Source: an uncultured virus (IMG/VR IMGVR_UViG_3300030061_001171)
Taxonomy: Duplodnaviria; Heunggongvirae; Uroviricota; Caudoviricetes
IMG/VR virus record: IMGVR_UViG_3300030061_001171
DNA: 64,000 nt
Direction: 5' to 3' (one strand)
The notes under the pieces were generated by a model, which saw only the letters and a program-made list of their open reading frames with translations, had not been told where the DNA came from and did not search any database. This document shows positions 3,171-35,182 of the stretch, piece by piece. The position numbers were made by a program, and so were the translations under genes. The stretch's first letter is position 1. Each line of letters begins with the position of its first letter.

Positions 3171-3171
3171 T

Positions 3172-3936: not shown

Positions 3937-3947
3937 GGAGATAAACT

Positions 3948-17100: not shown

Positions 17101-20100
17101 GCTGATAGTATTTTTGAAGATATCGGTGAATTAGATAACGCTAGGCTTAACTCGTTTAAGAATACAGATAAAAGTAGCTTTATTAGAGCTATGGAACTTG
17201 TTCCCTTAATGACATCTAAAGACGGTATGTTTAATGTCTTTAGGAGAATGGAAACATTACGACGTAACTTACGTGGTGAAGATATCATTGATACTGTAGA
17301 TTTGATTACAGATTTTAACGAAAACATTAAACCTATTTTAGACGAGATTAAACAAGCAAAGTGGAATAAAATGGTTGCGGACACTCGGTATGATCCGAAC
17401 ACTTTTGTTAACGAACAGAACATTAGCTCTAATCCTCAAAGTGTTGAGGCCGAATTCGCTAGAAGCGATCAACAGACTACATTTGCTGATATTGAAGATA
17501 GCTCATCATTTATTGTTAACGACGTTGAGTTAACAGCAGACCCTAGTGGTCCTCAAGCATCCTTTGATGTAGAATTAGAAATAAATCACGCCATGTCACG
17601 ACGAACTGAAGGCAACGAGCAGGGTTCTGGTTTAAACAGCATTGACGGAGTATTTTCAGACGATTTCTTTAACGGTCAAAGTGTAGCACACGGTCGTTTC
17701 TTAGGTATTTTGCAAAACCTTGAAGCAGAAGGAACGATTAACTCAAGCGATAAACTTTTACTTAAAGCTGTATTCTCTGATAAAACAAACTCAGGTCTTT
17801 TACAAAAGTTGTTTGAAAAAGAAGTCAAAGTTGAAACAGACCCTGACATCAGCGGAGGACGAGCAGATGCTTCTGTAGAAAGAAGAATTAGAATCGCTAA
17901 AGATTTATCAGAAAGCTTTAAAGATATCTCAGAGTTTGGAGCCGTGGGTGTTATTCTTGAAGAACTTGGTCACCTTATTGGTCAAAGAATGAGCGAAGAA
18001 GGAATGACTGGTTTCCTTACTAGAGCTAGAGAAATGTTAAAAACAAAAGATGGTTTTGATAAGTTCTTAGAAGCCGAACGCCGTATATTTGGTGATCCAG
18101 AAAATAGAATTAACTATAAGGATCGAAAAGAAGAATTAATTGGTAATATAAAATCCGAAAAAATCGATAACTTAGAATTATTTGGACCTATGTTTGCTAT
18201 GGCTGTTCTTCTTGGAGACGATGTAAGAGCGTTTATGAAAGGCGAGGATGGTAAGCTTTTAAACGAAGGTCACAGAATGGCTAAACATTACATCACTCGT
18301 TACAACCATTATAAAGACTTTGTAGATACTAATATACCTACCTTTATTGAAGCAACTGGTTTTGGTAAAATGGTAGATGAAAATCTTACTAATATTACTG
18401 ACTTTAGTGGTGTTAGGGGTTCATCTAAGAGTGTTAGGAAACGTAAAACATCTAGTGAGATTGCAGATGATTTACCTCCTAACGAATTTAGTAATGAAGG
18501 CCCAAAGAAAAACTTTAGGCACGAAGAAAATGACGTTGATCGTATTGATAGGATTATCGAAGAAAATACTCATGAAGGTTTCTTTTATCCTCAAAACATT
18601 GATACGGACTTAAATAAAATACAAGCCGTTAGTCGTTTTATGGAATCTAAGATTAAACAAGTTGGTTCTGGTCAACTTGTTGATAGTCCGTTTGCCGATA
18701 TTATTTCTGGTATGTTACTTGGTAAACTGTCAAGGCAAACCGCCGAACGACTTATAGAAAATGTTGCTCAACCGTTCGGCTCTAGGAAGTTTGCCCTTCT
18801 TGGTGAAACTGATAAACTCAGCGGTACTATTTTATTCTTGCTTCAAGGCATTGATACTAAGTCATTGATTTCATCTAGCGCATTCGGCACTAACCTTCCT
18901 ACTATACAGGGATTAGGTCTTCACTTAAAGGCTGTCTTTGAGCCTTTAATGAGTGGTTTGTTAAATATGAAGGTAGCAAACTTTACTCCCGGTATGGGAA
19001 GAAACGGATCTCCTTACTCGCCCTATGAAGCATTTGTTAATATGTTCTGGGAAATAACGATGAATAGAGATCCTCGTATAGGGGATAAATACGGAAAAGA
19101 AATTAAGGGTTGGCAAGGACGAGAAGCAGCCATGCAAAGAGCGCAAAAACTTATGTCAAACATGGCTGAAAAACAAGGTCAGACCGTTGATTTAGATGAT
19201 CCTAAATTAGATAATCTTCTTAACCGTATTGTTGATTTAGTTGAAATGTGGTCTAATCCAGAAAACGGTGTATGGAAACAGATTCTTGCTGCTCAGGTAG
19301 ATAGCAATGTGTTTGATGTTAAACTCGCGGATCGTCTCCAAACTGAAGGAGTTGTGCCAATTAAACTATCTGATTCTACATTTAGAAACGATGGTACAGA
19401 CGGCATCCAAGCTAGAGAATTATTACGAAATGCTATTTCATCTCTTGTTGAAAGAGAACTTGTTAAAAGCGATTTAATTGAAGAAGATTTATTTAAAGTT
19501 ATTTTTGCAGATTCTTTTGAAGGCGCGGATATTGACGGACCCACACGTATTAACATGACCAGACTGGCTGACATTTATAATAACGAATACGTTAATAAGT
19601 TTACAAACAACAGTAGTCGAGCGTTTAAAGAACTATTAAACGATATTAAAAGTGGTAAGTTAACTAAGTCAAAGATCTTATCTGAAGAAGAAATAAAAGT
19701 GTATAATAAACACATAAGCGAACAGATGGAACGTACTGAAAATCAGCAAAAGATGATTGAATCCATTCAAGATAAACGAATGAAAGAACTTCAATCTTCT
19801 CAGATGAGAACGTCAGACTCAGTAGTTAATAAACTTGCTGATCTTGTTTCTGAAGGTTATATGCAGAAATTTGGATCAAGTGCGTATTCCTTCATTGGAG
19901 ATAAATTCTTATCTACTGCTGATATGTTTGATTCTCCTGAAATTAGAAAATACTTAAACTTAGATCCTATTGAAATATTTACTTCAGTTATGCGTGGTCA
20001 AGCTGCTCAAGCCTTTGACCGTCAAGTATTTGGAAACGCTTTAGGCATGAGAGGATTTGGTATTGGCGATCTAATTAATAGTATTGATACTTATTTTAAT

Positions 20101-21945
20101 CGATCTCCTACTGAATATAAAGATATTATGCTAAACTCTCTTATGCAACAAGAGGGAAATAAACGTGGCTTAACTGGTACTGAAAAAACTAAATTTAAGC
20201 ACGCTTTAAATTACATTAAAAAGACGTATCAGCTTGGAGTCGGAACATTAAAATGGGATGATAAAGATGCAACATCTATTGGTTTCATTAACATGCTTAA
20301 TAAACTCGGTCAATTAGGAGCAGCCGTTAGCGTTGGTCCTAGATTGGCGTTTGCTGCTATGTTGGAAGAAACTCCAATGTCTGTCATTGGTAGCCTTAAA
20401 GCTAACCTAACGGCTATGAATAAATACATGGGAGAAAACATTAGAGTTTTACAGAACAAAGATGAATCTAGAGAATGGCTCCAAGGATTAGGTTTTATTA
20501 CTCAAGATTTAATGTACGAAGCTAACGTTGTGTTATCTAAGATTGGTTTAGATGATAGCAGGGGTATTTCTGAAGGTGGTAATGAGCCTCTAAAGATTGA
20601 TCAAATGATTAAAAGAATTTATAAATTTACTTCAACGGGTTTGGATACTCAGGTTCAGCACAACAGAGCATTCGGTGTCCGAAAAGCAATTACTGATATG
20701 GATCAATTGTTTTACCGAATGACAGATGAACATTCTATCATGATTGATAAAGACGGTAATGAAACCTTTATTTCTCCTAAAGAAGATAAACTTGTGGCTA
20801 CCTTTGATGACTTATACAATATGTTTAAAGGAGTAGACATAAGCAAATACTCTAACTCGGATTTAAATGCTGATCTAAAACAATTAGGATTAGGGGCGGA
20901 CATAAGAAACTTAGTTATGGATATGCTTAAAAACGGATTGTTTAGTGAAGATCTTGCTCCTATATTTAAACACATGTGGAGAAAGTATGGAGATGACATT
21001 AGGCAAAAAGGAATTCCTTTTGATAAAATGTTAAATGATGTTACTTTTGATTATAACTCAGGAGCAGAAATTAGAGCTAAACAGCTACAAGTTATTAACG
21101 CATTTAGAGAAATTATGTTCTTAGCTGCTACTAGGTATGCTAAACAACCCTCGTTGTCCGAGCATCCCGCAACTGGAGCAAGTGCTTTAGGTCCGTTTGC
21201 TAACTTGGCTACCTCTCTTACTACGTATTCATCCACTGTTTACGGAGGATTGCGTAAGGCTGGTTACGCTGGTATGGGCCTTATGGCTAGTGCGGTGATG
21301 GCACACGCTCTGTCTGGTTACATGTACTATAAACTCATTCAGCTTCAAAACTCAAAGAATGTAGATGAAATGTGGGCTGAAATGCAACGAGATCCAATGC
21401 AAGAGTTACAAGAAGCTATTATGTCTGTTCCGTTCTTTGGCATGAACCAGATGGTCATCGCCACCCTCTTACAGGTTCTCCGTGGTCAACGTCCGCAAAA
21501 CACGCAGATCTACAACCTTGCGGGTATTGCTATGGTTAACCGTATGCTTCAGTTACCTACCAGAGTTATCAATGCTTTTGCTTCGATTAACGAAGGTAAT
21601 ACACTAAAGGGTGCAGCTAATGTTGCTGCTATTACTCCTCTTCCGTACTTTGCTTTAGTTGCAGCCGGTATCCGAAGTGGAGAGGGGTTCTTAAATAATA
21701 ATGAATATGACTTTAAGTATTGGTCTCCTTATGAATCAGGCCGTAAAGTTAAGCGTAGCCCTAAAAAGAAATTTGTACGCAATATGAAACCTTCGGCTCC
21801 AACGCCTCAGAGACAACCCCAAGCTGCCCCCACTAGTGAAGGGACAGGACTGACGGGAATGCTTAATGGATTAGCACAAGAGTATTTAAAACTTGAAGAC
21901 GGTGTAAAGAAGAGTTTAGACAGGCGTTTGCTTAAACCTAAATAA
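8116..21945 (+). CDS. Giant internal virion/ejection protein (gp16-like position), 4609 aa, with single-subunit RNAP-like motifs and a zincin-like motif
   Basis: Uninterrupted 13.8-kb ORF; Gly/Ala-rich hydrophobic segments near both ends; EEFDADSSG, KAIFKSPTMTDLYQAG, NVFDS, ILEELGH motifs (see findings). Confidence 0.75.
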   Translation: MPIDFNSENYSKEATEFYEKLRRAEYEKNIAPRTLSDVMSEQLLSDNIGSFIQGSADAAPYIYDTMDSKYILDSFSDVAENLFTPFRVNPVELMEGIRADNDFFTRQIQSIADETDQQRENLGKNEKLEILFQGSPLFTRGVNSALADPENASTYLNSKLFGNIQFATGQRFFDLSNAFDASAYQNAGAAPTFQSVLGKSLNVMGEQANQMKMRMFDKNILEQVIDSLPEDHQLKGVDLDVLFKDQAVQEQIDLANYSPSDNWFTGNLRKMNPFYGEDEYVSYETMFGREDGIDKLLLAEDKSWQGTEDLPGVRDLLAAAIETSDNPQVREYLVKNPHIIEDLKNSKNSVAFSAGLNKRQIEYNIGEFVSRSDGFGVAGTMNMLGYGFTTDPSLPLDILATGVTLGGWALLKGGGRLIQGAAGLSYGIDAALSVKRLNKATNTYETVSRMGRLGTGLRNLNDMVDVGVTKLGRGVENFGDILLNAQRIMPTQIVSELLVPSTLFYFKTGVTKGKGAAGKAKNFYNYLQSGKYLPESTSGKMAYRAVSGAGEGVVWGYLEYEYATSIEDVMNEAFYGEETANAMAYQREQSGAMLQSMLMSGVMGGALAPTIGATFEGVIAAGKALPKATKDIAVGLSESTPFSRNKEPEVSDDVIDKINGKLEEKIAQRNEESRLYRLGQVSKDTLKNIGNRIINNAISGDARIALNLALKDVEFGESETNQTSAVNVLEKEILGLSAKSKRGGLSIKKAVVAVKKALNGERVSPEEFIRRVREDLKQQSTTQKFFIDRKTNFAIEQARQEQQELMGIIEQENVAQKTTDGNEPATAEQVTERQENSNTESDKLITETKKVFDEVEEEVEASKENIEKIENELHKIRTRIKRFKRTGKAGKAKAKEFENQAVKLENKLDELNNILENQLVERVEAVENYKTAVLKKDSENVPFLAGDISDYRKRLKKKLQSDLKGIEGASGAAVMGILGMDNDLINRLMSGPITEEEKAVLMKLKNYDAADSLTEAELNTVRSLIDNDFLESIRGRDISNHEKYFHRLISSGIDPEQAFEAARYYMLAEDLRSIGNNPIKTADEAKIELVKKGLSELEDSDAKIKQFEEAIQKVKDEEDSLLNGDLEKLNFRKRTVERLARAIGIEKVNKKTKEKLIAEVKNKFDKGLSEAEKDSYRKVLSMIGSDSTFFSRESVKRVEGLIEESIKTQEDEIINREINRQLDLDPEYSGLKRKENEVLGPARKTKEETAESMKQFGIEFTEKGRDVLADVPASEFIPENLKAEVKKELDAIRKRQNEIRKEISDRVKQDSKRIIQNKIRLESERIMIESRPPVGFVVPLMRLLMKTSSFLMLQRQKAERVKGSVLEGGFEFDNTISRSDLLGLLATEEMWPLYNKIREMSNGRSDAFDGEVVLAAMKDALYLADKNQSPVFIKSIDDTYNRVFNREIEGTPLFEGEGGVRNQLDFNQEIIDGSIRRAKEWSTLNPNLRYNGEDVTPISIEEWNQNFERRLAKLVETNDKIDSSGLRSPGQIVKRVLDLFNADLPEGLRLKSFDELGGTKDLVSPNRAAAAVVQALTTQREGTSRVTGRRAVAGSRGFVEQASSMGTRRNTKIQERTDSVIADMYSEYDLNDKINHLLKAEYGDIEALYQFVKNFKINPEVIPNRSRDTGMLILPTRAFDSLTDKMPKGIDDAIEANYAHFISSDPAFMSTVHDAVFPMFSSIVVGDAMHFNSRFNIEGTSINPFKGLGWGFPVGIARGGSFQAGVLVASEITFGYKNLFNVARKAYDQKYEKEYGMDFAEFFFGGGLEKLPSEQRKKVQDELFPAITEEFDADSSGSNIMLSIVQGVEGAQALREFFRTILKDLDEEDGTALYDEFIDVNYETVYDQVKKAVIDDLQGDKIDNLLKNNEVELGKYKPSLAMLKKLFEQAEDLDINLKAIFKSPTMTDLYQAGAKTMGDAIYAKFFNKKDVKEKLIKSGLISATDYDSTAILSSSFLGKLFNETAAPNEIAWIKDTLFPNRSGANKITNAKLQEYFNNFKLTREGEIGAGTAIKEDASDLVNAGEQTEAEAVAALEGIVADSEDNDFNTLLKSALGMAKVLTENSFFKDTTQGSKVVASVVDNWLGKVMDNEELKSAIEKGQYDKAKTIYRELATFDTARNIKAQALNSYARQGFKFNKDSFSRMITAMFGGSIKVDDILDNMSPMARRSFEETFYNNLATSDHGRMYVPSGQTMISEKTFRQGEFYSIAEMVNDIDVDLGSLKENIRRLTILDLAIRAAEFTDKLPKIGDEEYTPKTYYDFLNQWEADSQRADQLRAAAIKGLKKVEQNRKVITRSTRENRDELIEKAEILEKMLSKIIDSTGEKRPDRVASVMEEMTGFEETSQVNFLPSAFGFLPKTYTNKFEGAPSGLIRRVQLERSNTVRRLRSLEEARQSFEGTKVSEDPFSLEDFASVSQIPEDLSQIKPLKIRSSVNTNVFDSYVANLDTAPPLPIVAEMTKIELDNFVQNVKNEQITQLQKDGRYDQILLNYYTYSAAQNGLNKNRDIQFKSDEVQDLIDAKKAVQYKNLRNEDLRIALENDIDIQIAQKELDALIDAAIIEKENIVRALTQWGFDAKNRVTDLYSLEGDTIDTIPVKEGVVSVEEAIQHTIYNNDMEAGNLLAWLADDATFLGQILTKEGHVEVVSGKGSDAQIAMNAKVAFAGGDSAALYLALYAMNYAKRHAVQKLLGEDYDVTSLEIAVFSEYWYKKFEGNDVSYLGERHPDLYRKFEETDRATIQDLLDEGTNLASDNFNNDYILKETTRSMPLTEAVANDIKKMFPGIERRLKKQGMTIKDLLMNKSEDSLLDPNKHKVFVNQFGEPTSPHHIKGKARVKLLPVEKLNAVNSIGNKKLFDAIRFAYALDPSGKLPFAKSLSSVIGGHDPFSSRGTSISEVRSNAVMMTQAIKYIMNNKQVEIQKDNRSKVFFGNKSQDAEFLFYLPGTIKSAFDNADNILADSIFEDIGELDNARLNSFKNTDKSSFIRAMELVPLMTSKDGMFNVFRRMETLRRNLRGEDIIDTVDLITDFNENIKPILDEIKQAKWNKMVADTRYDPNTFVNEQNISSNPQSVEAEFARSDQQTTFADIEDSSSFIVNDVELTADPSGPQASFDVELEINHAMSRRTEGNEQGSGLNSIDGVFSDDFFNGQSVAHGRFLGILQNLEAEGTINSSDKLLLKAVFSDKTNSGLLQKLFEKEVKVETDPDISGGRADASVERRIRIAKDLSESFKDISEFGAVGVILEELGHLIGQRMSEEGMTGFLTRAREMLKTKDGFDKFLEAERRIFGDPENRINYKDRKEELIGNIKSEKIDNLELFGPMFAMAVLLGDDVRAFMKGEDGKLLNEGHRMAKHYITRYNHYKDFVDTNIPTFIEATGFGKMVDENLTNITDFSGVRGSSKSVRKRKTSSEIADDLPPNEFSNEGPKKNFRHEENDVDRIDRIIEENTHEGFFYPQNIDTDLNKIQAVSRFMESKIKQVGSGQLVDSPFADIISGMLLGKLSRQTAERLIENVAQPFGSRKFALLGETDKLSGTILFLLQGIDTKSLISSSAFGTNLPTIQGLGLHLKAVFEPLMSGLLNMKVANFTPGMGRNGSPYSPYEAFVNMFWEITMNRDPRIGDKYGKEIKGWQGREAAMQRAQKLMSNMAEKQGQTVDLDDPKLDNLLNRIVDLVEMWSNPENGVWKQILAAQVDSNVFDVKLADRLQTEGVVPIKLSDSTFRNDGTDGIQARELLRNAISSLVERELVKSDLIEEDLFKVIFADSFEGADIDGPTRINMTRLADIYNNEYVNKFTNNSSRAFKELLNDIKSGKLTKSKILSEEEIKVYNKHISEQMERTENQQKMIESIQDKRMKELQSSQMRTSDSVVNKLADLVSEGYMQKFGSSAYSFIGDKFLSTADMFDSPEIRKYLNLDPIEIFTSVMRGQAAQAFDRQVFGNALGMRGFGIGDLINSIDTYFNRSPTEYKDIMLNSLMQQEGNKRGLTGTEKTKFKHALNYIKKTYQLGVGTLKWDDKDATSIGFINMLNKLGQLGAAVSVGPRLAFAAMLEETPMSVIGSLKANLTAMNKYMGENIRVLQNKDESREWLQGLGFITQDLMYEANVVLSKIGLDDSRGISEGGNEPLKIDQMIKRIYKFTSTGLDTQVQHNRAFGVRKAITDMDQLFYRMTDEHSIMIDKDGNETFISPKEDKLVATFDDLYNMFKGVDISKYSNSDLNADLKQLGLGADIRNLVMDMLKNGLFSEDLAPIFKHMWRKYGDDIRQKGIPFDKMLNDVTFDYNSGAEIRAKQLQVINAFREIMFLAATRYAKQPSLSEHPATGASALGPFANLATSLTTYSSTVYGGLRKAGYAGMGLMASAVMAHALSGYMYYKLIQLQNSKNVDEMWAEMQRDPMQELQEAIMSVPFFGMNQMVIATLLQVLRGQRPQNTQIYNLAGIAMVNRMLQLPTRVINAFASINEGNTLKGAANVAAITPLPYFALVAAGIRSGEGFLNNNEYDFKYWSPYESGRKVKRSPKKKFVRNMKPSAPTPQRQPQAAPTSEGTGLTGMLNGLAQEYLKLEDGVKKSLDRRLLKPK

Positions 21946-21963
21946 AAAACCCACAGTATAACA
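21943..21963 (+). promoter_or_regulatory. Candidate phage RNAP promoter (copy 2)
   Basis: TAAAAAACCCACAGTATAACA; its first TAA is the stop codon of the giant gene. Confidence 0.65.
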
Positions 21964-21972
21964 AAAGAGAGT

Positions 21973-22004
21973 GGGAGTCTATAGATTTCTTTCTATAGAC
22001 TCCC
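21973..22004. repeat. Perfect 13-bp inverted repeat followed by AT-rich tract
   Basis: GGGAGTCTATAGA-TTTCTT-TCTATAGACTCCC. Confidence 0.9.
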
Positions 22005-22064
22005 TCTATTATACCTATATATTATTATAACTAAGTACAACTATAGATTTCTGGGGGGAGAACT

Positions 22065-22268
22065 ATGGAAGAACACTTTATTACTATTGGTATCAGCATC
22101 GCTGGACCCGCTCTATTGGGTATCTTCGGACTCGTCTGGAGGCTCACAAGCAAGATTTCATTACATGAAAAACAGATTGAAGCCCACGACAGACGCATCC
22201 GAGAGATGTCAGTGCGGCTTCAGAAACTTGACGATAAGCAATATTCTATTGTAAAAAATATTAAATAA
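22065..22268 (+). CDS. Small membrane protein with coiled-coil tail (possible holin)
   Basis: One hydrophobic segment FITIGISIAGPALLGIFGLVW followed by charged heptad region; SD GGAG. Confidence 0.55.
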   Translation: MEEHFITIGISIAGPALLGIFGLVWRLTSKISLHEKQIEAHDRRIREMSVRLQKLDDKQYSIVKNIK

Positions 22269-22303
22269 TTTCACTGCGGCTATGCCGCTCTCAGGAGTCT
22301 GAC

Positions 22304-22840
22304 ATGTTAAATTACCTCGTTCTAGCTACCCTTCCGTTGTTACCTTTGGATGATACTGATAATGATAATTCAGTAATGGACTACCAAATCTACACTGAGG
22401 GACCACGTACGGTGTACGAGGGGGCTGCTAAACTCAAGTGGGACGAGAACGTAAATGCTTGTGTTGAATACACTTTCGATCTCGTACCGGGACGCTTGGC
22501 GGGATCTGCGATCTCTTCCAATCCGGGTAAACCGCTGCTTCCTTATGATGAAGTTATAATCTCAGACGATGAGATCTATGTTAGCTGGGAGCGGAACCGC
22601 ACTGACTTGTGGCCTACTCCTACGGAGTGCCACCGTAGGTTCCACTTCTTTGTTATTAAAACACAGTTTGATGCGGATGACCTTAGCGCACTCTTGAGTG
22701 ACTGGGGGCCACCTGTAGTAATTGACGTTCCGTGGCCCGGTACTGACTACACCTACGTGTCCCCTTGGGATCTCAATCTGGATATTGTGGTGGACGGTAA
22801 GGACTTGGCAATGCTTCTGGCGGGTTGGAAAATCGATTAG
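22304..22840 (+). CDS. Protein with C-terminal dockerin/EF-hand-like repeats
   Basis: FDADDLSALLSDWG and WDLNLDIVVDGKDLAMLLAGW; hydrophobic N-terminus; SD AGGAG. Confidence 0.7.
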   Translation: MLNYLVLATLPLLPLDDTDNDNSVMDYQIYTEGPRTVYEGAAKLKWDENVNACVEYTFDLVPGRLAGSAISSNPGKPLLPYDEVIISDDEIYVSWERNRTDLWPTPTECHRRFHFFVIKTQFDADDLSALLSDWGPPVVIDVPWPGTDYTYVSPWDLNLDIVVDGKDLAMLLAGWKID

Positions 22841-22855
22841 GGGGTCGGGAATTTA

Positions 22856-22898
22856 CATGGGGGGATATAACAAATTGGCGTAGAATTTCCCCCCTATG
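22856..22898. repeat. G/C-run inverted repeat at the late/early junction (probable genome terminus region)
   Basis: CATGGGGGGA (22856-22865) ... TCCCCCCTATG (22888-22898); gene content switches from late to early here. Confidence 0.5.
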
Positions 22899-22939
22899 CC
22901 CCCCTTCTTTTAATCTGATTCTATGAAAGGAATCAAACA

Positions 22940-23539
22940 ATGTCGTATTCATTCGACTGTTTCTGTACTGCGTTCTCTATGCTTGTTCATGCTATTGCTG
23001 GCGATAAAGCTAGCCTTGACGCAAAAGCCGACAGAGAAAAGGCTGGAAAGCTTGCTCTTGAATTCTTTAAGCAACTGGGACTTGATGTTATTACCCCGCT
23101 TGATCGAATTCGCGGTGCGTGCAAGCACGAGTTGTTTGGCGGCACGGCTGATTACCTTGTAATCCACTTCCCTACACAGTGGATTTGCGTTAAGGGTCGT
23201 GTCTATAGGGTGACTACCATCTGTGAGGTCCATCGGTTTAGGATCGATAAAGCTCAGGACGCAAGAGACTGGGCTTTCGAGATTGAGAAGCCTTGGCGAT
23301 TCCAGACTATTGTTTGGGATAGCGAGACCGGCGAACAAGTTGGCTATGAATTTGAAAGTGACTGCTACGAAGGTGTCACCGATCTTCGTCAGATCATCAA
23401 AGACACTGAGTGGTATCTCACCACTGACATCGACAAGCTCTGCAAAGACATGGCATCAGATATCACTGATGTCGTTCTTGATGAGTTTCGTCGCGTTGGT
23501 TTAGTTGACGAAAACGGTAACTCGACTGAGCGAGAATAA
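22940..23539 (+). CDS. Early hypothetical protein (199 aa)
   Basis: SD GAAAGGA; stop codon lies inside pistol ribozyme 1. Confidence 0.8.
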   Translation: MSYSFDCFCTAFSMLVHAIAGDKASLDAKADREKAGKLALEFFKQLGLDVITPLDRIRGACKHELFGGTADYLVIHFPTQWICVKGRVYRVTTICEVHRFRIDKAQDARDWAFEIEKPWRFQTIVWDSETGEQVGYEFESDCYEGVTDLRQIIKDTEWYLTTDIDKLCKDMASDITDVVLDEFRRVGLVDENGNSTERE

Positions 23540-23597
23540 ACAGCCATTAGGCTCAGAGCGTCGGGCTGTACCCATAACTGGGTACGGCTCGGGTTGG
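23520..23597 (+). ncRNA. Pistol self-cleaving ribozyme 1
   Basis: P1 CUCG/CGAG with loop CUGAGC, linker AAUAAACAG, P2 CCA/UGG, UUAG, pseudoknot GCUCAG, AGCG, 14-bp P3, predicted cleavage G23593/U23594. Confidence 0.93.
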
Positions 23598-23637
23598 ATT
23601 TTGTTTCCACTATCACCCGTTCCCAGAAAGGGACACT

Positions 23638-23871
23638 ATGCCTAAGTATAGCGCAAAAGAAATGGACAAGTTCAGAAACATCGCATCATTCTTCAGAGGG
23701 TTCGACACTACCGTTCGCTCTGGCTCATCAGATGATGCCATTAACATCGTTATCGGAATGGTCAACCGTGACCGTCCGGTTGTCGAGTCCCTCATCAAAC
23801 CACGCAATTCATTTGAAATGCAGAGTGACAGTTGTCCTGAAACTGGCATTGTCTACGGCGATCTTTCCTAA
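23638..23871 (+). CDS. Early hypothetical protein (77 aa)
   Basis: SD GAAAGGGA 5' of ATG; lies between the two ribozymes. Confidence 0.65.
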   Translation: MPKYSAKEMDKFRNIASFFRGFDTTVRSGSSDDAINIVIGMVNRDRPVVESLIKPRNSFEMQSDSCPETGIVYGDLS

Positions 23872-23897
23872 CTCCGTTCTTTGAAAGGAACAAACCA

Positions 23898-24386
23898 ATG
23901 ATTACAATGACCTGCCTTACCACCGAAGAACGTTTCGCTCCTGTGTTCACACAGGACTTCAACGATTCAACATGGGAGGAGGCGGTAGAGCTTGTGTATG
24001 AATGTCTTCGACACCAACACGACGGCCTCAGAGAGGCACGCCGTGAGGCTCAGAAGATGGTTGATGAACAATTGACGGGTCAAAAGCTGACCCATCTTGA
24101 GAAGTTCAAACAACTTCATACACTCACAGCGCAGGCTGCGGATGCGGTGACTTACTGGAATGACAATTTCATGAAGGCACCAGCATGTCGCATCCGAAAC
24201 GTTTCAGAGTGGAAGCTCCACTTCTCAAACGCCTACCGCACGTTGTCACTCAACCCAGAGATTCTCGATAACTTCTCCACTGATGCGAAGTGGGCTATCG
24301 ATAATCTCCGCACTATTGTGTATCAAAACGCAGCAGTGTGCGAGTTCTACTTTGAAGAGTGGGACAACTCGTCTGAGCGAGAATAA
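23898..24386 (+). CDS. Early hypothetical protein (162 aa)
   Basis: SD GAAAGGA; stop codon lies inside pistol ribozyme 2. Confidence 0.8.
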   Translation: MITMTCLTTEERFAPVFTQDFNDSTWEEAVELVYECLRHQHDGLREARREAQKMVDEQLTGQKLTHLEKFKQLHTLTAQAADAVTYWNDNFMKAPACRIRNVSEWKLHFSNAYRTLSLNPEILDNFSTDAKWAIDNLRTIVYQNAAVCEFYFEEWDNSSERE

Positions 24387-24445
24387 ATAGCCATTAGGCT
24401 CAGAGCGGAGAGGCGCACCCTTAACGGGGTGTTGCCTCTCGTTGG
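24367..24445 (+). ncRNA. Pistol self-cleaving ribozyme 2
   Basis: Same core as copy 1 (two substitutions), P3 with different sequence but retained pairing and UAAC loop, predicted cleavage G24441/U24442. Confidence 0.93.
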
Positions 24446-24680
24446 AAAGGAGGTCATGGATGATCTCAGTCACGGACGACGCTTTCTTTCTCGCCTCCGA
24501 AGCCGGTGCTTTGGAGGTTCCGGTACTACTCCGTAGTGCCATCACCCTAACCGATCCACTTGGATCAGGCCCACATGGGCCACGCACCGAACAGACAGGT
24601 GGTTCACTGTCTAGTATTATCCCCATTAGGAAGGCCAGCGTAGGTTCTTCCACTATCACTGTTTGCTTTATACGGAGCAA
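24446..24680 (+). ncRNA. Candidate structured non-coding RNA (multi-hairpin)
   Basis: Six consecutive hairpins directly downstream of ribozyme 2; no convincing long ORF start before 24685. Confidence 0.4.
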
Positions 24681-24684
24681 CAAA

Positions 24685-25224
24685 ATGTTTTACAAAATTG
24701 TTAATGATCGTGCTTTCTGCAACTCCTTCGTGACCATCAAGATCAAGGACAAGGCCATGCGCTACTCCTTTGGTGATCAGGACGCATACCGCCAAAACTT
24801 CATCAAAGATGGGGGAGCGTGGAAGCCAGTGGGTAACATTGTCCTCAGTCCTGACCAGTCTTCGGCAGAAAACGAAGTTCTTCAGGCAATGGTCGATCTC
24901 GATGGTGACAAGGATGCGGTCATCAAGATGGAGCCTTGCGCTGAGTCTCAGCCTCGCACCGTGCGGCTCAAGGCTGTGCGTACTGACCAGACTGTCACTG
25001 ATCTGGGTGATCGCACCATCACTGACCCGGCTCTGATCTATGCCCGCAAGGTTCTGAGCGGCATGAAGCGGTACATCAAGCATGTCTCCGTTATCATCCC
25101 TCTTGCTCACGGGCAGTCTGCTATTTACTCAGCATACCGCGACTTTGATCGCTCATCGTCCTTGGTCATCCGCGACAAGTGGGGTAACTGCCTCTCACGC
25201 CACGAAATCAAGGTAAGCGAGTGA
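24685..25224 (+). CDS. Early hypothetical protein (179 aa)
   Basis: Start moved to ATG 24685 (MFYKIVNDR) after SD GGAG; high-GC codon style. Confidence 0.75.
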   Translation: MFYKIVNDRAFCNSFVTIKIKDKAMRYSFGDQDAYRQNFIKDGGAWKPVGNIVLSPDQSSAENEVLQAMVDLDGDKDAVIKMEPCAESQPRTVRLKAVRTDQTVTDLGDRTITDPALIYARKVLSGMKRYIKHVSVIIPLAHGQSAIYSAYRDFDRSSSLVIRDKWGNCLSRHEIKVSE

Positions 25225-25225
25225 C

Positions 25226-25378
25226 AAGACCCCTCAAGACCTCCCCGCCGAAGACCTCCTCGGTCCATTCCACTATCACACGGTCTCGGACCACCCCCAG
25301 AGAGAGCGGTCTCGGGAGATCCCCGGTAAGAAGCCGTAGGATCCTCCCTAAGATCATCCTCTCTAGGACGGGTCTCGG
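25226..25378. repeat. GC-rich intergenic cluster of short repeats
   Basis: AAGACC at 25226, 25236, 25251; GGTCTCGG at 25282, 25308, 25371; ATCCTC(C/T)CTA at 25341 and 25356. Confidence 0.65.
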
Positions 25379-25493
25379 GTCATCTTTATCATTCAAAGCC
25401 CTCAGACGGCCTCTCCGGGCCTCTGTAGGGATTCTCGGGACTGCCTTGCGTAAGGCGGCCCCTGCTTATTTCTTTCATAAGGAAACTGAACCG

Positions 25494-25733
25494 ATGAATA
25501 TTTGTCTTGAACACGAACTTGAAAGTACCCTTACAGAACTTCTTCGTGAAGACTACGAGGATGAGCTTGAGGGTATCGAGGACATCGATGACTTGTTGGA
25601 AGAGCTTTACGATCATATCCACGCGGATATTATTCCTATTGCTGAGAATTATTTTAGGAACAGCATCCCCGGCTTGACTAGGGAAACTGTTGAAACATTC
25701 GTATCAAACCATGAACCCGAGGAAAAAGAATGA
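25494..25733 (+). CDS. Acidic early protein, Ocr (T7 gp0.3)-like DNA mimic candidate
   Basis: 79 aa from ATG 25494 (SD AAGGA); 25 Asp/Glu versus 4 Lys/Arg; IEDIDDLLEELYDHIHADIIP resembles Ocr [20 protein letters not shown]. Confidence 0.5.
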   Translation: MNICLEHELESTLTELLREDYEDELEGIEDIDDLLEELYDHIHADIIPIAENYFRNSIPGLTRETVETFVSNHEPEEKE

Positions 25734-26065
25734 TACCCGAAGAGTTGGGAACTAAAGTAATCACGAATGAGCAGGGAGGCGTGTCCTTAGCCTCTTATCC
25801 TTTGGATAGCGGAAAGGAGGAACTGTTTAGGGTATTTGTATATGATGATGCTTCGGATTGCATTGGAGCTATCCGCACTTGGAACTTTACTGAAAAGAAA
25901 GAAGCCCTCAAGGCAGCTAAGGAACTTTGCGAAAGGTTCAATAGAGAGAAAGATCACATGAAGAATCTCCTTCGGTACTCTGTAAGAGTCCACCGATTTC
26001 ACGGCCCCGACCTACGGTACAGGTCAGGCCAACCACTGTTTGATTCAATGAAGGAATACCAATGA
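25730..26065 (+). CDS. Early hypothetical protein
   Basis: ATGA coupling on both sides; SD GAGG. Confidence 0.7.
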   Translation: MIPEELGTKVITNEQGGVSLASYPLDSGKEELFRVFVYDDASDCIGAIRTWNFTEKKEALKAAKELCERFNREKDHMKNLLRYSVRVHRFHGPDLRYRSGQPLFDSMKEYQ

Positions 26066-26283
26066 ATCAGAATGCAATTGATACGTACAAGAGATCACAA
26101 GCCTCTTTCACTCGCCCCAAGATCACCTCGGACAGTACTAAGTTGATGCAATTGTGTGTCAAGCTTAGGTGTATTGTCCCTGTGGTGGAGGGTCTAATGG
26201 CAGACGTACGGGAGATCTCTGAGGATATGGATGCTATCCGTAAGAGAATGGAGTACGGTCCCGATTATAAGGAATCTGAATAA
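26062..26283 (+). CDS. Early hypothetical protein
   Basis: SD AAGGA; ATGA and TAATG coupling. Confidence 0.7.
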   Translation: MNQNAIDTYKRSQASFTRPKITSDSTKLMQLCVKLRCIVPVVEGLMADVREISEDMDAIRKRMEYGPDYKESE

Positions 26284-26582
26284 TGATCGAAGAAGAGTAC
26301 GACTACCGTGATCACCATGTGGTGGTCGAGATTGAGTTGATGGAAGACAACCAGAAGATCTGGTACTTCGTAACCTGTCCTGACGGGGAAGAAAGGACTG
26401 TAGATGTCTCCCCCTACGGTAATCAGAATGAACTCGTAAAGAAATGGATTGAGATATTCATGAAGTTTGGGGAATACCCTGAACGTGTCGGGGTTGGTCC
26501 CTTGACTATGCACGATCTTTGTTTGATTGAAATGGGATATGATGCCGAAGCTGCACAAAAGAGTCCTAGAGATTTTAAATGA
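26283..26582 (+). CDS. Early hypothetical protein (acidic)
   Basis: SD AAGGA; TAATG coupling. Confidence 0.7.
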   Translation: MIEEEYDYRDHHVVVEIELMEDNQKIWYFVTCPDGEERTVDVSPYGNQNELVKKWIEIFMKFGEYPERVGVGPLTMHDLCLIEMGYDAEAAQKSPRDFK

Positions 26583-26588
26583 TTACCT

Positions 26589-26622
26589 GAGGTCTGCCAA
26601 TGTGGCGGGCCTCTGTTTATTT
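26589..26622 (+). terminator. Possible intrinsic terminator or processing hairpin
   Basis: GAGGTCTGCCA-ATG-TGGCGGGCCTC followed by TGTTTATTT. Confidence 0.45.
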
Positions 26623-26649
26623 CTATGCCGTAAAGGCAGAAAGACTATT

Positions 26650-26982
26650 ATGTCTAACTACAACACTAGCGTTTCTTCACCCGTCCGTGGCCGCATTACC
26701 CGCAAGGACGGTCTTCCGTTCACTGCAAAGGTGACCTTCTGGATCAACAAGACAGATCCAACGGCCAAGAAAACTTGGGAAGTGGACCTGAAGGGACACA
26801 CCATTCTCGAAATGCTTGATGAAGTTAAGCGAATCGAGAAGAACTACAAGGCTAAGTACGGTATCAAGTGCAGCCTGTGGAAGGTGAACAACGGTCCCAA
26901 CCTGTTCAAGGATCGCATTGAGGACATCAAGAAGTCCCGTCGTGAGTGGGCTGTCGCTCAGGCCGCCGGAGGTGAGCGTTGA
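26650..26982 (+). CDS. Early hypothetical basic protein (110 aa)
   Basis: Start moved to ATG 26650 (MSNYNTS); strongly biased AAG/ATC/CTG codon use. Confidence 0.75.
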   Translation: MSNYNTSVSSPVRGRITRKDGLPFTAKVTFWINKTDPTAKKTWEVDLKGHTILEMLDEVKRIEKNYKAKYGIKCSLWKVNNGPNLFKDRIEDIKKSRREWAVAQAAGGER

Positions 26983-27134
26983 GCGGCTGCTCCACAATGG
27001 AGGTGTCCCGAGTCCCCTCTGAGGCAAACGTCTCAGAGGGGGTCTCCGGGCCTCAGGTAGATGTGGTCACTGGCGTATTGTTTCTTGCGGTAATTGTAAT
27101 TATATGTTATGGTTGCCTAAAGAAGTCAGATTGA
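26979..27134 (+). CDS. Small membrane peptide (51 aa)
   Basis: TTG after SD GGAGGTGA; ...VVTGVLFLAVIVIICYGCLKKSD; contains a long hairpin at 27007-27050. Confidence 0.45.
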   Translation: MSGCSTMEVSRVPSEANVSEGVSGPQVDVVTGVLFLAVIVIICYGCLKKSD

Positions 27135-27156
27135 ATCCCCGATAGGAAGGTAGCGT

Positions 27157-27177
27157 CTAAAAACCCACGTTATAGTA
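27157..27177 (+). promoter_or_regulatory. Candidate phage RNAP promoter (variant)
   Basis: CTAAAAACCCACGTTATAGTA, intergenic, 21 nt before ATG 27199. Confidence 0.5.
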
Positions 27178-27198
27178 ACTACTTTCCAAGGAGATAAA

Positions 27199-27570
27199 AT
27201 GCGTAAGCTAGTTGATCGTGAAGGTTTTGTTGTGGCAGGTTGTTGGGAGAAAGCTACTAACCTTGTAGTGAAAGACAAGGTATATTTAATTGTAGATAGA
27301 ACCCATCAGGATAAGAACCTCAATGAGGTACAACAGTTACACAATAAAGGTGAATTGAATGTACATGATCCTGTTTGGCATCACTTCCCTGCTACTAAAG
27401 AGCAGCCTCAGGGTATGCTCAAGGTATTCCCTAGTATTGCACAGCAGTGGAAGAACCAGATGAATAAGAAGTACATCAAGCCTCACACCCATAAGTTGGA
27501 TAGCATTGACTCATCTAAGTTTAATGTTATCTTGTCTAAGTATCGTTATGAATTTTCAGAAAGTAAGTAA
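27199..27570 (+). CDS. Hypothetical protein
   Basis: SD AAGGAG; 123 aa. Confidence 0.75.
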   Translation: MRKLVDREGFVVAGCWEKATNLVVKDKVYLIVDRTHQDKNLNEVQQLHNKGELNVHDPVWHHFPATKEQPQGMLKVFPSIAQQWKNQMNKKYIKPHTHKLDSIDSSKFNVILSKYRYEFSESK

Positions 27571-27571
27571 T

Positions 27572-27724
27572 ATGATTTGGAAGATTGTACGTAGTGGTTC
27601 TTGGTTCAACGTTGTCGTTGTTTCTACTAACAAGGTGGAGGACGGCTTTAACAATAAGGAAGATGCTGAACGTTTCATGGCACACCTTGAAGCTGAAGAC
27701 GGGAGGGATGTAGCTAATGGATAA
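27572..27724 (+). CDS. Small hypothetical protein (50 aa)
   Basis: MIWKIVRSGSWFNVV...GFNNKEDAERF; packed between neighbours. Confidence 0.6.
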   Translation: MIWKIVRSGSWFNVVVVSTNKVEDGFNNKEDAERFMAHLEAEDGRDVANG

Positions 27725-27923
27725 AGAAATTGCAAACGATTTGGATACTATTTCCAACAAAGCGTTTATCGCTTTTCAGTATTACAAAGAAGAATGGGCT
27801 GACTATTCTAAAGAAGAAATAAATAAGTTTATTCTTCGTGATATTAATAAGATTCAAGAACTAATTGATGGCATTAAACTTAAAATTAAGGAGGCTTCTG
27901 AATGTGTGCCTACGGTAGAGTAA
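27717..27923 (+). CDS. Small hypothetical protein
   Basis: SD GGAGG; overlaps neighbours by a few codons. Confidence 0.6.
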   Translation: MDKEIANDLDTISNKAFIAFQYYKEEWADYSKEEINKFILRDINKIQELIDGIKLKIKEASECVPTVE

Positions 27924-28144
27924 TAGTAAAAATAGAATACAGAGGAACCATAATGGAAAGTATGTGGTTCCAATCCTACGAAGAAGAACTATCAGATAGT
28001 CACAAAGAACACATTAAACACCACGTTAGTGAACACTATCCCGGTGAAGAAGATCACGTTCGTATCCTTCACCGTCTTGAAGACATCTCAGCAGAAATCA
28101 TGGGAGAACCAGATGAGTTTGTTTCTAGTGCCAATGAAGATTGA
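27902..28144 (+). CDS. Small acidic hypothetical protein
   Basis: SD AAGGAGG 7 nt upstream. Confidence 0.6.
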   Translation: MCAYGRVIVKIEYRGTIMESMWFQSYEEELSDSHKEHIKHHVSEHYPGEEDHVRILHRLEDISAEIMGEPDEFVSSANED

Positions 28145-28790
28145 TTTTGTTGATAGCATGGGCGGTGACTTGACTACTGTTAACTGCGCCCGTGTCTCGT
28201 TTGGTAAGCACGCTAATAAACTTTCCGAGCATGATAAAAGATTGATTACTTATCTTGCTAAACATGATCACTTCACTCCGTTTACCCATAGTACTATAAC
28301 TTTTAGAGCAAAGGTTCCTATCTTCATTGCTCGTCAGTGGTTCAAGCATACAGTAGGATTTTCATACAATGAAATGTCTCGTCGTTATATTGACGAGAAT
28401 CCTGAACTGTATGACATTCTAGACACATGGAGAAAGAGACCTAACAAGTCAATCAAGCAGGGATCTTCAACTGAATACGTTGACCTAGAATCAGATGAAA
28501 CACAAGATGATATCTTGGCTCACATGCTAGGTGGTATTGATATGTATAATTTTCTAATTGAATCAGGTGTATGCCCTGAACAAGCACGATGTGTCTTGCC
28601 TCAGAATGTAATGACTGAGTTCATTGTAACTGGTAGTTTGTCAGCGTGGGCTAGGTTCTACAAGCTACGCTCTGACTCACACGCACAGCAAGAGATTCGT
28701 TGGTGTGCTAATGAGATTGATAAACAAATTAGAAACTTACCTCAGTTTACTTACTCTTGGTTCGCGCTTAAGGAGAACAGCAATGGCTAA
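28134..28790 (+). CDS. thyX: Flavin-dependent thymidylate synthase
   Basis: VNCARVSF, HFTPF, PIFIARQWFKHTVGFSYNEMSRRY, PEQAR.VLP, HAQQEIR; start placed at MKIDFVDSMG. Confidence 0.95.
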   Translation: MKIDFVDSMGGDLTTVNCARVSFGKHANKLSEHDKRLITYLAKHDHFTPFTHSTITFRAKVPIFIARQWFKHTVGFSYNEMSRRYIDENPELYDILDTWRKRPNKSIKQGSSTEYVDLESDETQDDILAHMLGGIDMYNFLIESGVCPEQARCVLPQNVMTEFIVTGSLSAWARFYKLRSDSHAQQEIRWCANEIDKQIRNLPQFTYSWFALKENSNG

Positions 28791-28893
28791 AGGTTTGAAG
28801 ATTGTAAAAGATTTTAAAGGTAAAACGTCTGGTCGCCCCCGACGTTCAAAGAAAAATAAATATGGCATTAGAAAACGTGGAAGAAAGAATTAA
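28783..28893 (+). CDS. Tiny basic protein (36 aa)
   Basis: SD AAGGAG; MAKGLKIVKDFKGKTSGRPRRSKKNKYGIRKRGRKN. Confidence 0.55.
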   Translation: MAKGLKIVKDFKGKTSGRPRRSKKNKYGIRKRGRKN

Positions 28894-29392
28894 AGGTAAG
28901 GTCATTAAAGGATATGGTATAGCTAAACTTATAGGTTGGCCTACTATTAATATTCTTAATGAAACAAATACTTTTCCTAGTATTTACTATATTTCTCATA
29001 ATACTTATGGTCAAGGAGTTGCAATTGTATTAAATAAATCTATTGAAATACACTTTTTAAAAACAGTAAATAATTTTACAGATGAATACATTAGTGTAGA
29101 CATATTGTTTAATCTGTTTAAAGATAACATAAAAGCAATACCTAATAATATAATAGGTATTTTATACAAAGGAATATTGGAAGAAAGAAAAATGTCCCCG
29201 AAAAACAACAATGACTTTAGAAAACTTGATCGAGCAAAGGATAAGATTAAGTTACCTAAAAAAAAGCAAAGATCACAATGGTCTGAATCAGCTAGTGATA
29301 ATTTAAATCTACCTGATGATTCAGTCGATATTCATCCAGATGATTGGCTTAATTTTGATGATAATTCAAATGAAAGTGAAGGTGCTGATTGA
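28862..29392 (+). CDS. Riboflavin kinase-like (divergent) domain with charged C-terminal extension
   Basis: IKGKVIKGYGIAKLIGWPTINI and SIEIHFL resemble GxVVxGxxxGRxLGFPTAN and xEvHll of flavokinases; exact start uncertain. Confidence 0.55.
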   Translation: MALENVEERIKGKVIKGYGIAKLIGWPTINILNETNTFPSIYYISHNTYGQGVAIVLNKSIEIHFLKTVNNFTDEYISVDILFNLFKDNIKAIPNNIIGILYKGILEERKMSPKNNNDFRKLDRAKDKIKLPKKKQRSQWSESASDNLNLPDDSVDIHPDDWLNFDDNSNESEGAD

Positions 29393-29505
29393 CTGGAGCA
29401 GATGGTTTGCTAATATATCAGATGGGTTGTTTTGATTACTTCATTGCTTTAGGAATTACCGGGCTTGCGTTAAGCTTGGTTATGAAATTTTTTGATAAAG
29501 ATTAA
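29389..29505 (+). CDS. Small membrane peptide (38 aa)
   Basis: TTGA overlap with upstream stop; YFIALGITGLALSLVMKFF hydrophobic segment. Confidence 0.4.
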   Translation: MTGADGLLIYQMGCFDYFIALGITGLALSLVMKFFDKD

Positions 29506-29517
29506 GGAATTATAATT

Positions 29518-30498
29518 ATGTCACACGAAATTACTGCTACCGACTCCGCCGTCTTTCAGGGAACCAAGGCTTGGCACGGACTGGGCTATGTTGTTGAGGA
29601 TGATATGAGTCCTCTTGCTGCTGTTGAAACTGCTGGCCTTGATTGGTATGTTCACAAGACTGACGGTGTGTTTGGTTACACCGACAAGGGTACGACCGTA
29701 ATGGATCACAAGCGTTGCATGACATACCGTGAAGACACCAAGGAATCACTTGGTTATGTGTCTCAGGACTACAATGTCTTCCAGAATGTGGAACTTGCCA
29801 AGCTTGCGATGTCTGTCTCAGAGAAAGCTAATGTTGAGTCTGCCTTCTCTATGATGGGCGGTAAGCGTATCGTCCTGCTACTCAAGGGTGGCAGCATTGA
29901 AGTTGGTAACATGAACGATGTGCTTGATGATTACTTCTGCCTTGTCAACGGTCACGATGGTAAGTTCTCTCTTCGTGCCTTCGGTACGTCAGTGCGAGTG
30001 GTGTGTAACAACACGCTTCAGATGGCACTGTCGCAGGCCAGAGGTCAGACCTATTCGATCAGTCACAATGGTGACTTCGAGACTAAGCTTGATGATATGC
30101 GTCGAGCGTTGGGTCAGTACACCAAGTCACGCGACTGGTTTGCTACTACCGTTAACGAACTTGCAAAGAAAGAAGTTAATACTAATGTTCTTGAAACGTT
30201 CTGGATGGAAGCATTCGCAATGACTGTGGGTGATGATGTCCTTAAGGATCGTGACCGTTCGATCAAGGAGTCCATCAAGTTCCTTGAGAACGTCAAGGTT
30301 ACCTTTGAACAAGAACGTGACGCACTTAAGGTGCCTGCTTCCATGTGGCTTGCTGCTAATGCAGTGACCAATTACGTGCAGCACAAGACCGCTGACCGTG
30401 GACGCAAGGCTTCATACGAAAGTCGGGCTGGCGACGTGCTTATGGGCAAGAGGGCTGACCTCTCCCGTAAGGTGATGAAGCACGCCATGACCGTGTAA
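29518..30498 (+). CDS. DUF932 / TIGR03299-type phage-plasmid protein
   Basis: AWHGLG, AGLDW, VNGHDG, VRVVCNNTL, NAVTNYVQH motifs. Confidence 0.88.
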   Translation: MSHEITATDSAVFQGTKAWHGLGYVVEDDMSPLAAVETAGLDWYVHKTDGVFGYTDKGTTVMDHKRCMTYREDTKESLGYVSQDYNVFQNVELAKLAMSVSEKANVESAFSMMGGKRIVLLLKGGSIEVGNMNDVLDDYFCLVNGHDGKFSLRAFGTSVRVVCNNTLQMALSQARGQTYSISHNGDFETKLDDMRRALGQYTKSRDWFATTVNELAKKEVNTNVLETFWMEAFAMTVGDDVLKDRDRSIKESIKFLENVKVTFEQERDALKVPASMWLAANAVTNYVQHKTADRGRKASYESRAGDVLMGKRADLSRKVMKHAMTV

Positions 30499-30526
30499 TC
30501 CCCCCGCCCCCTTCGGGGGGCAACCT

Positions 30527-30704: not shown

Positions 30705-30860
30705 ATGTACGGCAAAGGAGATAAGTATCGAGACGTTGATAAGAAAAGGTATGATGAACAGTACGAAAAAATCTTTGGTAAGAAAAAGTTAAACAACGCA
30801 GAGAGTAACACTAAATGCAAACATGGAAAGACTACACGAAAGAAGAGCAAACAAGGTTAA
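30705..30860 (+). CDS. Small basic phage protein (GKGDK..R..YE.IF type, 51 aa)
   Basis: SD GAAAGGAGGT; MYGKGDKYRDVDKKRYDEQYEKIFGKKK... Confidence 0.65.
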   Translation: MYGKGDKYRDVDKKRYDEQYEKIFGKKKLNNAESNTKCKHGKTTRKKSKQG

Positions 30861-35132: not shown

Positions 35133-35150
35133 AAAACCCATGCTATAACA
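35130..35150 (+). promoter_or_regulatory. Candidate phage RNAP promoter (copy 3)
   Basis: TAAAAAACCCATGCTATAACA, upstream of the SSB/replication block. Confidence 0.65.
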
Positions 35151-35182
35151 AACTACGGTTAGTCCGTAGGGAAAGGAGAACA

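Follow-up and report, generated by a model that had tools for sequence, protein, structure and literature searches.

Two same-strand pistol ribozymes flanking early genes of an uncultured marine T7-like phage and their predicted role in transcript processing

IMG/VR virus record IMGVR_UViG_3300030061_001171, of which a stretch of 64,000 nucleotides (nt) was analysed here (the window), derives, judging from its genes, from an uncultured marine T7-like podovirus. Two self-cleaving ribozymes of the pistol class were located in its early region, one on either side of an 848-nt segment that carries two small genes. We consider it probable that the two act independently of each other, in cis, and process the early transcript into discrete messages. 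The basis of this reading is family membership, conservation of structure, and the positions of the ribozymes relative to genes; from these we infer cleavage in vivo and an effect on mRNA stability or translation. The pistol family was already known to occur near phage genes (Harris et al. 2015, PMC4604425).

A scan of the whole window with Rfam cmscan gave two Pistol (RF02679) matches, both on the + strand and both above the gathering score of 34.5. The near-identical record G001 holds the same two matches. The cuts were placed at G23593/U23594 and G24441/U24442, because the Rfam consensus has its scissile bond within a two-base G-U linker between P3 and the 3′ strand of P2. The resulting features are as follows.

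23520–23598, + strand: pistol ribozyme 1 (Rfam 63.3 bits, E 3.5e-09; folding z-score −4.00)
23520–23592, + strand: parts of ribozyme 1, with P1 at 23520–23535, P2 5′ strand GCCA at 23543–23546, pseudoknot partner at 23552–23557, and P3 at 23561–23592
23593–23598, + strand: 3′ parts of ribozyme 1, with predicted cleavage at the G23593/U23594 bond and P2 3′ strand UGGA at 23595–23598
24367–24446, + strand: pistol ribozyme 2 (Rfam match 24367–24436, 45.4 bits, E 4.5e-05; 3′ end corrected)
24367–24440, + strand: parts of ribozyme 2, with P1 at 24367–24382, P2 5′ strand GCCA at 24390–24393, and P3 at 24408–24440
24441–24446, + strand: 3′ parts of ribozyme 2, with predicted cleavage at the G24441/U24442 bond and P2 3′ strand UGGA at 24443–24446
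23594–24441, + strand: predicted excised RNA of 848 nt, derived from the two cleavage sites

The Rfam match ends too early in ribozyme 2 because P3 is long, and the 3′ end of this copy was set by reading the sequence and by folding, not by the Rfam alignment. Segment parsing gave four of five P1 pairs in both copies, with an A.A closing pair in each. The 6-nt P1 loop forms a pseudoknot with the P2–P3 junction, at five of six positions in copy 1 and at all six in copy 2. Three of the four P2 pairs (GCCA/UGGA) are Watson-Crick in both copies, and the fourth is a G.A. Folding gave a P3 of 14 base pairs (bp) in copy 1 and of 7+5 bp in copy 2. Among 15 unique pistols parsed from related loci, changes in the P1 loop are matched by changes in its pseudoknot partner (the covarying sets are TCTGAG/CTCAGA, ACTAAG/CTTAGA, GCTGGG/CCCAGA, and ACTTCG/CGGAGA). 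With 81.5% identity over 65 nt, the two window copies have no long stretch of identity in common, and it thus seems unlikely that this cassette is an artefact of assembly caused by repeats. Self-cleavage of both copies is predicted from their family membership.

Cleavage by pistol ribozymes is described as an internal phosphoester transfer (PMC4604425) whose products carry a 2′,3′-cyclic phosphate and a 5′-OH (PMC8782182). The 848-nt RNA is accordingly drawn, as a prediction, with a 5′-OH and, at its 3′ end, the body of ribozyme 2 with a 2′,3′-cyclic phosphate. The first-pass annotation had proposed a ribozyme-bracketed, two-gene RNA with ends of this kind. The Rfam matches and linker positions bear out its boundaries and its open reading frames (ORFs) of 77 and 162 amino acids (aa), and the end groups fit the chemistry in the two papers just cited. 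Both 3′ products start with UUGGA (23594–23598 and 24442–24446). The ORFs at the locus are listed below.

22940–23539, + strand: ORF of 199 aa, which runs into ribozyme 1; its stop codon TAA (23537–23539) lies inside the AUAAA of the ribozyme
23638–23871, + strand: ORF of 77 aa, without a known family
23898–24386, + strand: ORF of 162 aa, predicted to be helical, without a known family

The 77-aa protein has homologues at 82–94% identity and the 162-aa protein has four cluster representatives at 83–94%; because both are conserved, the two ORFs are taken to be real genes. The last 20 bases of the 162-aa ORF form P1 of ribozyme 2, and the stop codon TAA (24384–24386) falls inside the conserved AUAAA of that ribozyme. 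All four homologues of the protein end in SSERV, which is encoded by P1.

The ribozyme pair is located in the early region (~22000–30500), where the G+C content is 45–56% versus ~33–43% around it. The genes of this region are all on the same strand, with short gaps, 5′ of the phage RNA polymerase gene, so that transcripts reading through both sites are to be expected. We propose that a long early transcript would cross both sites and be cut once by each ribozyme. Each ribozyme sits at, or overlaps, the stop codon of the upstream gene, and its body would stay on the upstream RNA as a 3′ cap made up of the 12–14 bp P3 hairpin and the 2′,3′-cyclic phosphate. The downstream RNA would begin with a 5′-OH a few bases before a hairpin and the ribosome-binding region. 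The 848-nt two-gene RNA would be the linear piece between two cuts, and the bracket would have arisen when a 938-nt module with its own ribozyme was placed upstream of a gene that already had one. The first-pass suggestion of an unusually stable mRNA is plausible as a part of this scheme. Transcript processing has also been suggested for bacterial hammerhead and twister ribozymes (review PMC6765202).

Three lineages were compared at this locus. In the first (the window, G001, and L036), the two pistols are 848 nt apart. The second (L045/L046, ~83% identical, with G002 judged complete) has exactly two pistols, 1206 nt apart, with predicted cleavage sites at G3611/U3612 and G4817/U4818 of L045. 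The third (L023/L034, 87–88% identical) keeps the 162-aa gene and ribozyme 2 and has no ribozyme 1: positions 22938–23875 of the window are replaced there by ~80 nt with a 25-aa ORF. A segment bracketed by same-strand copies of one ribozyme is thus present in the window and in L045/L046 and absent from L023/L034, i.e., it is found in two of the three lineages, and its content varies.

Ribozyme 2 of the window, L034, and L045 was aligned without gaps and scored on the pistol structure, including the pseudoknot. In this alignment, 95.1% of cells were paired, versus 35–53% for slid controls, and six pairs were changed on both sides (two in P2 and four in P3). Such double-sided changes with pairing kept indicate selection on the cis structure of each ribozyme. 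The P2 of ribozyme 2 in L045/L046 is GACG/CGUG, i.e., both strands are changed in cis, while ribozyme 1 of this lineage still yields a UUGGA end. In L045, this end of the excised RNA would make only two of four pairs with the P2 of ribozyme 2. Selection therefore appears to pair each ribozyme with its own downstream strand, not with the product of the other.

These data bear directly on a different fate of the 848-nt RNA put forward in the first-pass annotation, in which the 5′-OH and 2′,3′-cyclic phosphate ends are joined to give an exonuclease-proof dicistronic circle. The ends would be sealed by an RtcB-type ligase of the host or, once UUGGA has docked on ribozyme 2, by the pistol reaction running in reverse. 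We regard circularisation as quite unlikely. It is consistent with the pistol end chemistry (PMC4604425, PMC8782182), with the identity over 5 nt between the 5′ end of the RNA and the downstream strand of ribozyme 2, and with retention of the bracket in two lineages. In addition, a preprint (10.1101/2022.07.19.500677) reports 13 clusters of pistol-bearing, apparently circular RNAs, of which nine come from marine metatranscriptomes and one corresponds to a segment of a double-stranded DNA (dsDNA) phage. The claim that the UUGGA end rebuilds P2 of ribozyme 2 holds for the window, where it follows from the two copies sharing one P2 (GCCA/UGGA), but the contact consists of only three pairs plus a G.A and is not conserved, as the L045/L046 changes demonstrate. 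Conserved pairing that would join the ends of the excised RNA was thus not found. When the 848-nt RNA was folded with a model that ignores tertiary structure, the probability of the end-to-end P2 contact was ≤0.0001. Further, L023/L034 have no ribozyme 1, many pistols stand alone, and a ribozyme restored by end-joining would reopen the circle. Neither RtcB nor any other RNA ligase family was recognised among 52 (Pfam) or 37 (PHROGs) proteins of the window, which is part of a genome. Of 17 whole metagenome contigs that contain this pistol core, none had terminal overlaps, and for hammerhead arrays PMC3088659 states, with data not shown there, that circular or spliced products were sought and not detected. 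Circularisation thus finds no support in the L045/L046 P2, in L023/L034, in single pistols, in folding, or in the ligase scan. Its probability is not put lower still because pistol circular-RNA contigs are reported from marine metatranscriptomes. That such cassettes in marine dsDNA phages are circularised in infected cells, and so serve as templates of pistol-bearing viroid-like circular RNAs, appears equally doubtful.

Downstream of the cuts, a short repeated box and a structured leader were identified.

23605–23616, 24648–24659, and 25268–25279, + strand: TTCCACTATCAC box, three exact copies in the window
24442–24684, + strand: structured leader of 243 nt (folding z-score −3.63), which starts at the predicted 5′-OH end made by ribozyme 2

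Cleavage site 1 is followed, 11 nt on, by the first copy of the TTCCACTATCAC box. Start codons of small early genes come 20–37 nt after the box, both in the window and in L045 (3623–3634, 3970–3981, ~4974, and ~5622). The box often reads TTTTGTTTCCACTATCAC, has a CACTAT core, and is also kept in L034 and L045. G002, the complete relative, has four copies within 2 kb of the early region and none elsewhere. The box is listed here as a candidate, promoter-like element or 5′-untranslated-region element of early gene modules. Were each box the promoter of a small early gene, the upstream ribozyme would only trim read-through RNA; all module messages would share one short 5′ leader, each message before them would have a fixed 3′ end, and the P3 of ribozyme 1 with the U-rich run after site 1 might also terminate transcription. 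Such an insulator role we rate as unlikely. The distances from the cut and from start codons, and the confinement of the box to the early region of the complete relative, agree with it, as does the ribozyme 1 P3 followed by GTTGGATTTT, which was flagged as terminator-like. However, the flag came from a simple consensus scan, the promoter role is hypothetical, the box is absent before middle and late genes, and ribozyme 2 is followed by the 243-nt leader and not directly by a box.

The leader has a conserved hairpin 5–8 nt from its 5′ end and a TTCCACTATCAC box at its 3′ end, contains no conserved ORF, and is much more stably folded than shuffled versions of it. It has no Rfam match. Compensatory changes relative to L034 were recognised in its hairpins when the alignment was inspected by eye, and the pairing of the hairpin directly 3′ of site 2 is kept in L045. 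The stretch may serve as a structured 5′ leader or represent a small RNA with a ribozyme-made 5′ end. A 254-aa ORF from the ATG at 24460 was rejected: this frame is missing from L023, where the homologous gene begins at the position corresponding to 24685. Two other non-coding elements were noticed. A G+C-rich gap of 269 nt without an ORF (25225–25493; folding z-score −2.58) contains four GGTCTCGG-like repeats and one TTCCACTATCAC box. Another box, AAAACCCACAGTATAACAA, occurs at 21946–21964 and 35133–35151, one copy exact and one with three mismatches (0.07 expected by chance), where the early region begins and ahead of an SSB-like gene; it may be a promoter of the phage polymerase.

The gene content between the ribozymes, which the first-pass annotation had proposed to compare in related phages, turned out not to be conserved. 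The segment between the L045/L046 pistols holds an additional ORF of 86 aa, the 77-aa gene, and, where the 162-aa gene would be, an unrelated ORF of 158 aa, and L023/L034 have no bracket. The 938-nt module (22938–23875), absent from the latter, consists of the 199-aa ORF, ribozyme 1, a TTCCACTATCAC box, and the 77-aa ORF, and is bordered by copies of a repeated ribosome-binding-site (RBS) box.

22919–22938 and 23877–23896, + strand: RBS box TTCTATGAAAGGAAYCAAAC, two copies

Borders of exchanged modules coincide with three kinds of element: the RBS box (22919, 23877), copies of the TTCCACTATCAC box, between two of which the 86-aa gene of L045 is inserted, and, once, ribozyme 2, at whose first base homology between the window and L045 exactly resumes. 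The earlier proposal that the ribozymes act as recombination points is thus borne out at a single border, the others being at RBS and TTCCACTATCAC boxes. A rival reading would make the ribozymes hitch-hiking repeats, carried along with mobile modules and serving mainly as patches of homology for early-gene shuffling, with no role in expression. This fits the mosaic nature of the region, the presence or absence of the 938-nt module, the insertion of the 86-aa gene, and the swap of the 162-aa gene for the 158-aa one up to ribozyme 2. We nevertheless find it very unlikely: the compensatory changes in P2 and P3 point to selection for RNA structure, not merely for sequence identity, and most module borders are not at ribozymes. 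Observations in three individual runs were set aside. DNA contigs of run X3 that share only 24367–24407 with the window are not recombinants but other pistols with the same core; a joint of 22867 to 24444 in run X9 (side 26) was too weak to use; and a loose end 5′ of 23876 in run X20 is not the 3′ end of a pistol but, as judged from L034, part of the 25-aa ORF.

Pistols in other genomes bear on independent action. Scans of whole records gave 2, 2, 2, 4, 1, and 1 pistols in G001–G006, and a single pistol was found in each of two complete large phage genomes, of 130 kb and 176 kb. Within the stretches scanned, one pistol was present at 10 of 12 loci found in viral contigs with a strict core pattern, and at 27 of 28 metagenome loci found with a clade-specific pattern. 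Since single pistols are common, a pair is not needed for the role of a pistol. In L011, an A+T-rich viral contig, four consecutive pistols occur (1974–4029); the predicted units of 511, 1138, and 341 nt hold one, four, and one small ORFs, and start codons follow 21–26 nt after the cuts. In a redundant set of 42 pistols (window and related loci), the stop codon of an upstream ORF of at least 50 aa lies within −60 to +21 nt of the ribozyme start in 38, and the next start codon is often ~20–45 nt 3′ of the cut. By these positions, the usual place of a pistol is a tight gap between two same-strand genes. A separate observation concerns L004, L005, L010, L014, and most of L017–L044 (including marine phage contigs of 130–176 kb), where one pistol lies 4–15 nt after the stop codon of an ORF. 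A conserved non-coding stretch follows these single pistols, near matches resembling transfer-messenger RNA (tmRNA) and near tRNA matches; the ribozyme may there make the 5′ end of a small RNA.

The overlap of ribozymes with stop codons could also mean that translation gates cleavage, the terminating ribosome unfolding P1 and the pseudoknot, so that cleavage would report translation of the upstream gene. Both window copies have the stop within their AUAAA, and the overlap is kept in all four homologues of the 162-aa protein. This is, however, a highly improbable mechanism, as the upstream ORFs of L045 end 1 and 6 nt before the ribozymes (the 199-aa homologue 1 base before), and at most other loci the stop lies upstream of the ribozyme.

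Several points weigh against processing of the early transcript by two independent pistols. Two of the 20 runs listed are RNA (word shares 0.14 and 0.05), and the RNA contigs on 21900–27200, four short ones, all fall within 23876–24296; they touch neither cleavage site, nor the junction of a circle, and cleavage is predicted from family membership. The RNA runs showed no joints, and none of their contig ends coincides with a predicted cut. Ribozyme 1 of L045/L046 has a U for the conserved A of the GAGCG core and, by this substitution, may be a weakened or dead copy (the core U is at 3575 in L045 and 3576 in L046, and the ribozyme there still scores 65.4 bits). Should the TTCCACTATCAC box act as a promoter, transcription of the cassette would mostly begin 3′ of ribozyme 1, which would then act mainly on read-through RNA. 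An intergenic element near an upstream stop codon is partly expected in any densely coding phage genome. Finally, that 5′-OH and cyclic-phosphate ends would stabilise the messages is an expectation from bacterial RNA decay in general.

The arrangement resembles several known systems. In T7, host ribonuclease III (RNase III) processes the polycistronic early mRNA at sites between early genes, 5′ of the phage RNA polymerase gene, and the resulting messages are of gene length with a hairpin at the end. The pistol sites have the same placement, but RNase III is a host protein that cuts a double-stranded site and leaves 5′-phosphate and 3′-OH ends, whereas here the RNA is predicted to cut itself and to leave a 5′-OH and a cyclic phosphate. 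The bracket layout is also that of engineered ribozyme-flanked circular RNA cassettes. Among natural RNAs, retrozymes and viroid-like RNAs, as described in PMC7761336, have direct ribozyme repeats that bracket a segment with ends ligatable by RtcB-type enzymes. All these RNAs are non-coding or engineered, and their ends are held by extensive pairing, whereas the cargo here is two protein genes and the end contact is three pairs that are not conserved in the sister lineage.

Functionally, the proposed scheme corresponds to the hammerhead arrays of prophages (Perreault et al. 2011, PMC3088659), in which same-strand ribozymes flank single genes or short blocks of changing identity. According to that report, processing of a long phage transcript was proposed, a circular or spliced product was considered, and transcripts of ~2 kb were shown to cut at all sites. 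Here, the ribozymes are of the pistol class, the locus lies among the early genes of a T7-like marine phage of lytic type, and cleavage is predicted, whereas in the arrays it was shown, in prophages. The window copies share P1, the P1-loop pseudoknot, P2, P3, and the G-U dinucleotide with the pistol family (RF02679, PMC4604425), and differ in the long P3 (12–14 bp), the A.A closing pair of P1, and the overlap with stop codons; their activity is predicted. The marine circular-RNA contigs of preprint 10.1101/2022.07.19.500677 are similar in being marine, in carrying the pistol in one polarity, and in their branched fold with long hairpins. Those contigs could be templated by cassettes like this one and be either genuinely circular or linear transcripts. 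The literature searched contained no account of tandem pistols around phage genes, with the discovery paper (Weinberg et al. 2015) outside that search. Self-cleaving ribozymes flanking phage genes are known; this locus is a case with pistols, in a marine T7-like phage.

All long ORFs of the window are on the + strand. PHROGs and Pfam identified a T7-type single-subunit RNA polymerase gene at 30815–33361, together with primase-helicase, family A DNA polymerase, portal, scaffold, capsid, tail tube, nozzle, T7-type terminase, gp14-like, and giant gp15/gp16-like proteins (the largest of 4609 aa). The best isolate matches of the RNA polymerase, at only ~26% identity, are in Stappia phage SI01 and Pelagibacter phage HTVC119P, and blastn of 22900–25300 against isolate phage records gave no match. 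DNA of the window is present in marine metagenomes, and a related complete record is 72.9 kb long. The 162-aa protein gave a low-confidence AlphaFold2 model (mean predicted local distance difference test score, pLDDT, 56.5) and weak TPR-like leads only in the ESM Atlas, and among viral contigs its locus was recovered from the window's own strain alone. The 199-aa protein had a mean pLDDT of 55.4 and no match in the ESM Atlas. Positions 8116–21945 are a single ORF of 4609 aa without a Pfam match, which follows the gp14-like and 1373-aa ORFs that come after the terminase gene; it resembles a giant internal virion protein gene, in a genome of ~73 kb. A 215-aa protein (33830–34477) with Sigma-70 region 4 (Pfam E 2.9e-06; PHROG sigma factor E 1.5e-10) coexists with the phage's own single-subunit RNA polymerase.

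The locus is a natural test bed for the role of pistols, since related genomes carry two, two, or one of them around swapped modules. If the early transcript is indeed processed by the ribozymes, some phages would have replaced a host RNase step with self-cutting RNA, and maturation of early mRNA would be independent of the host. If, instead, the RNA were circularised, a phage would make translatable circular mRNAs. The locus is also a candidate for a DNA-phage origin of the marine pistol circular-RNA contigs, which may be real circles from such cassettes or linear phage transcripts mistaken for circles.

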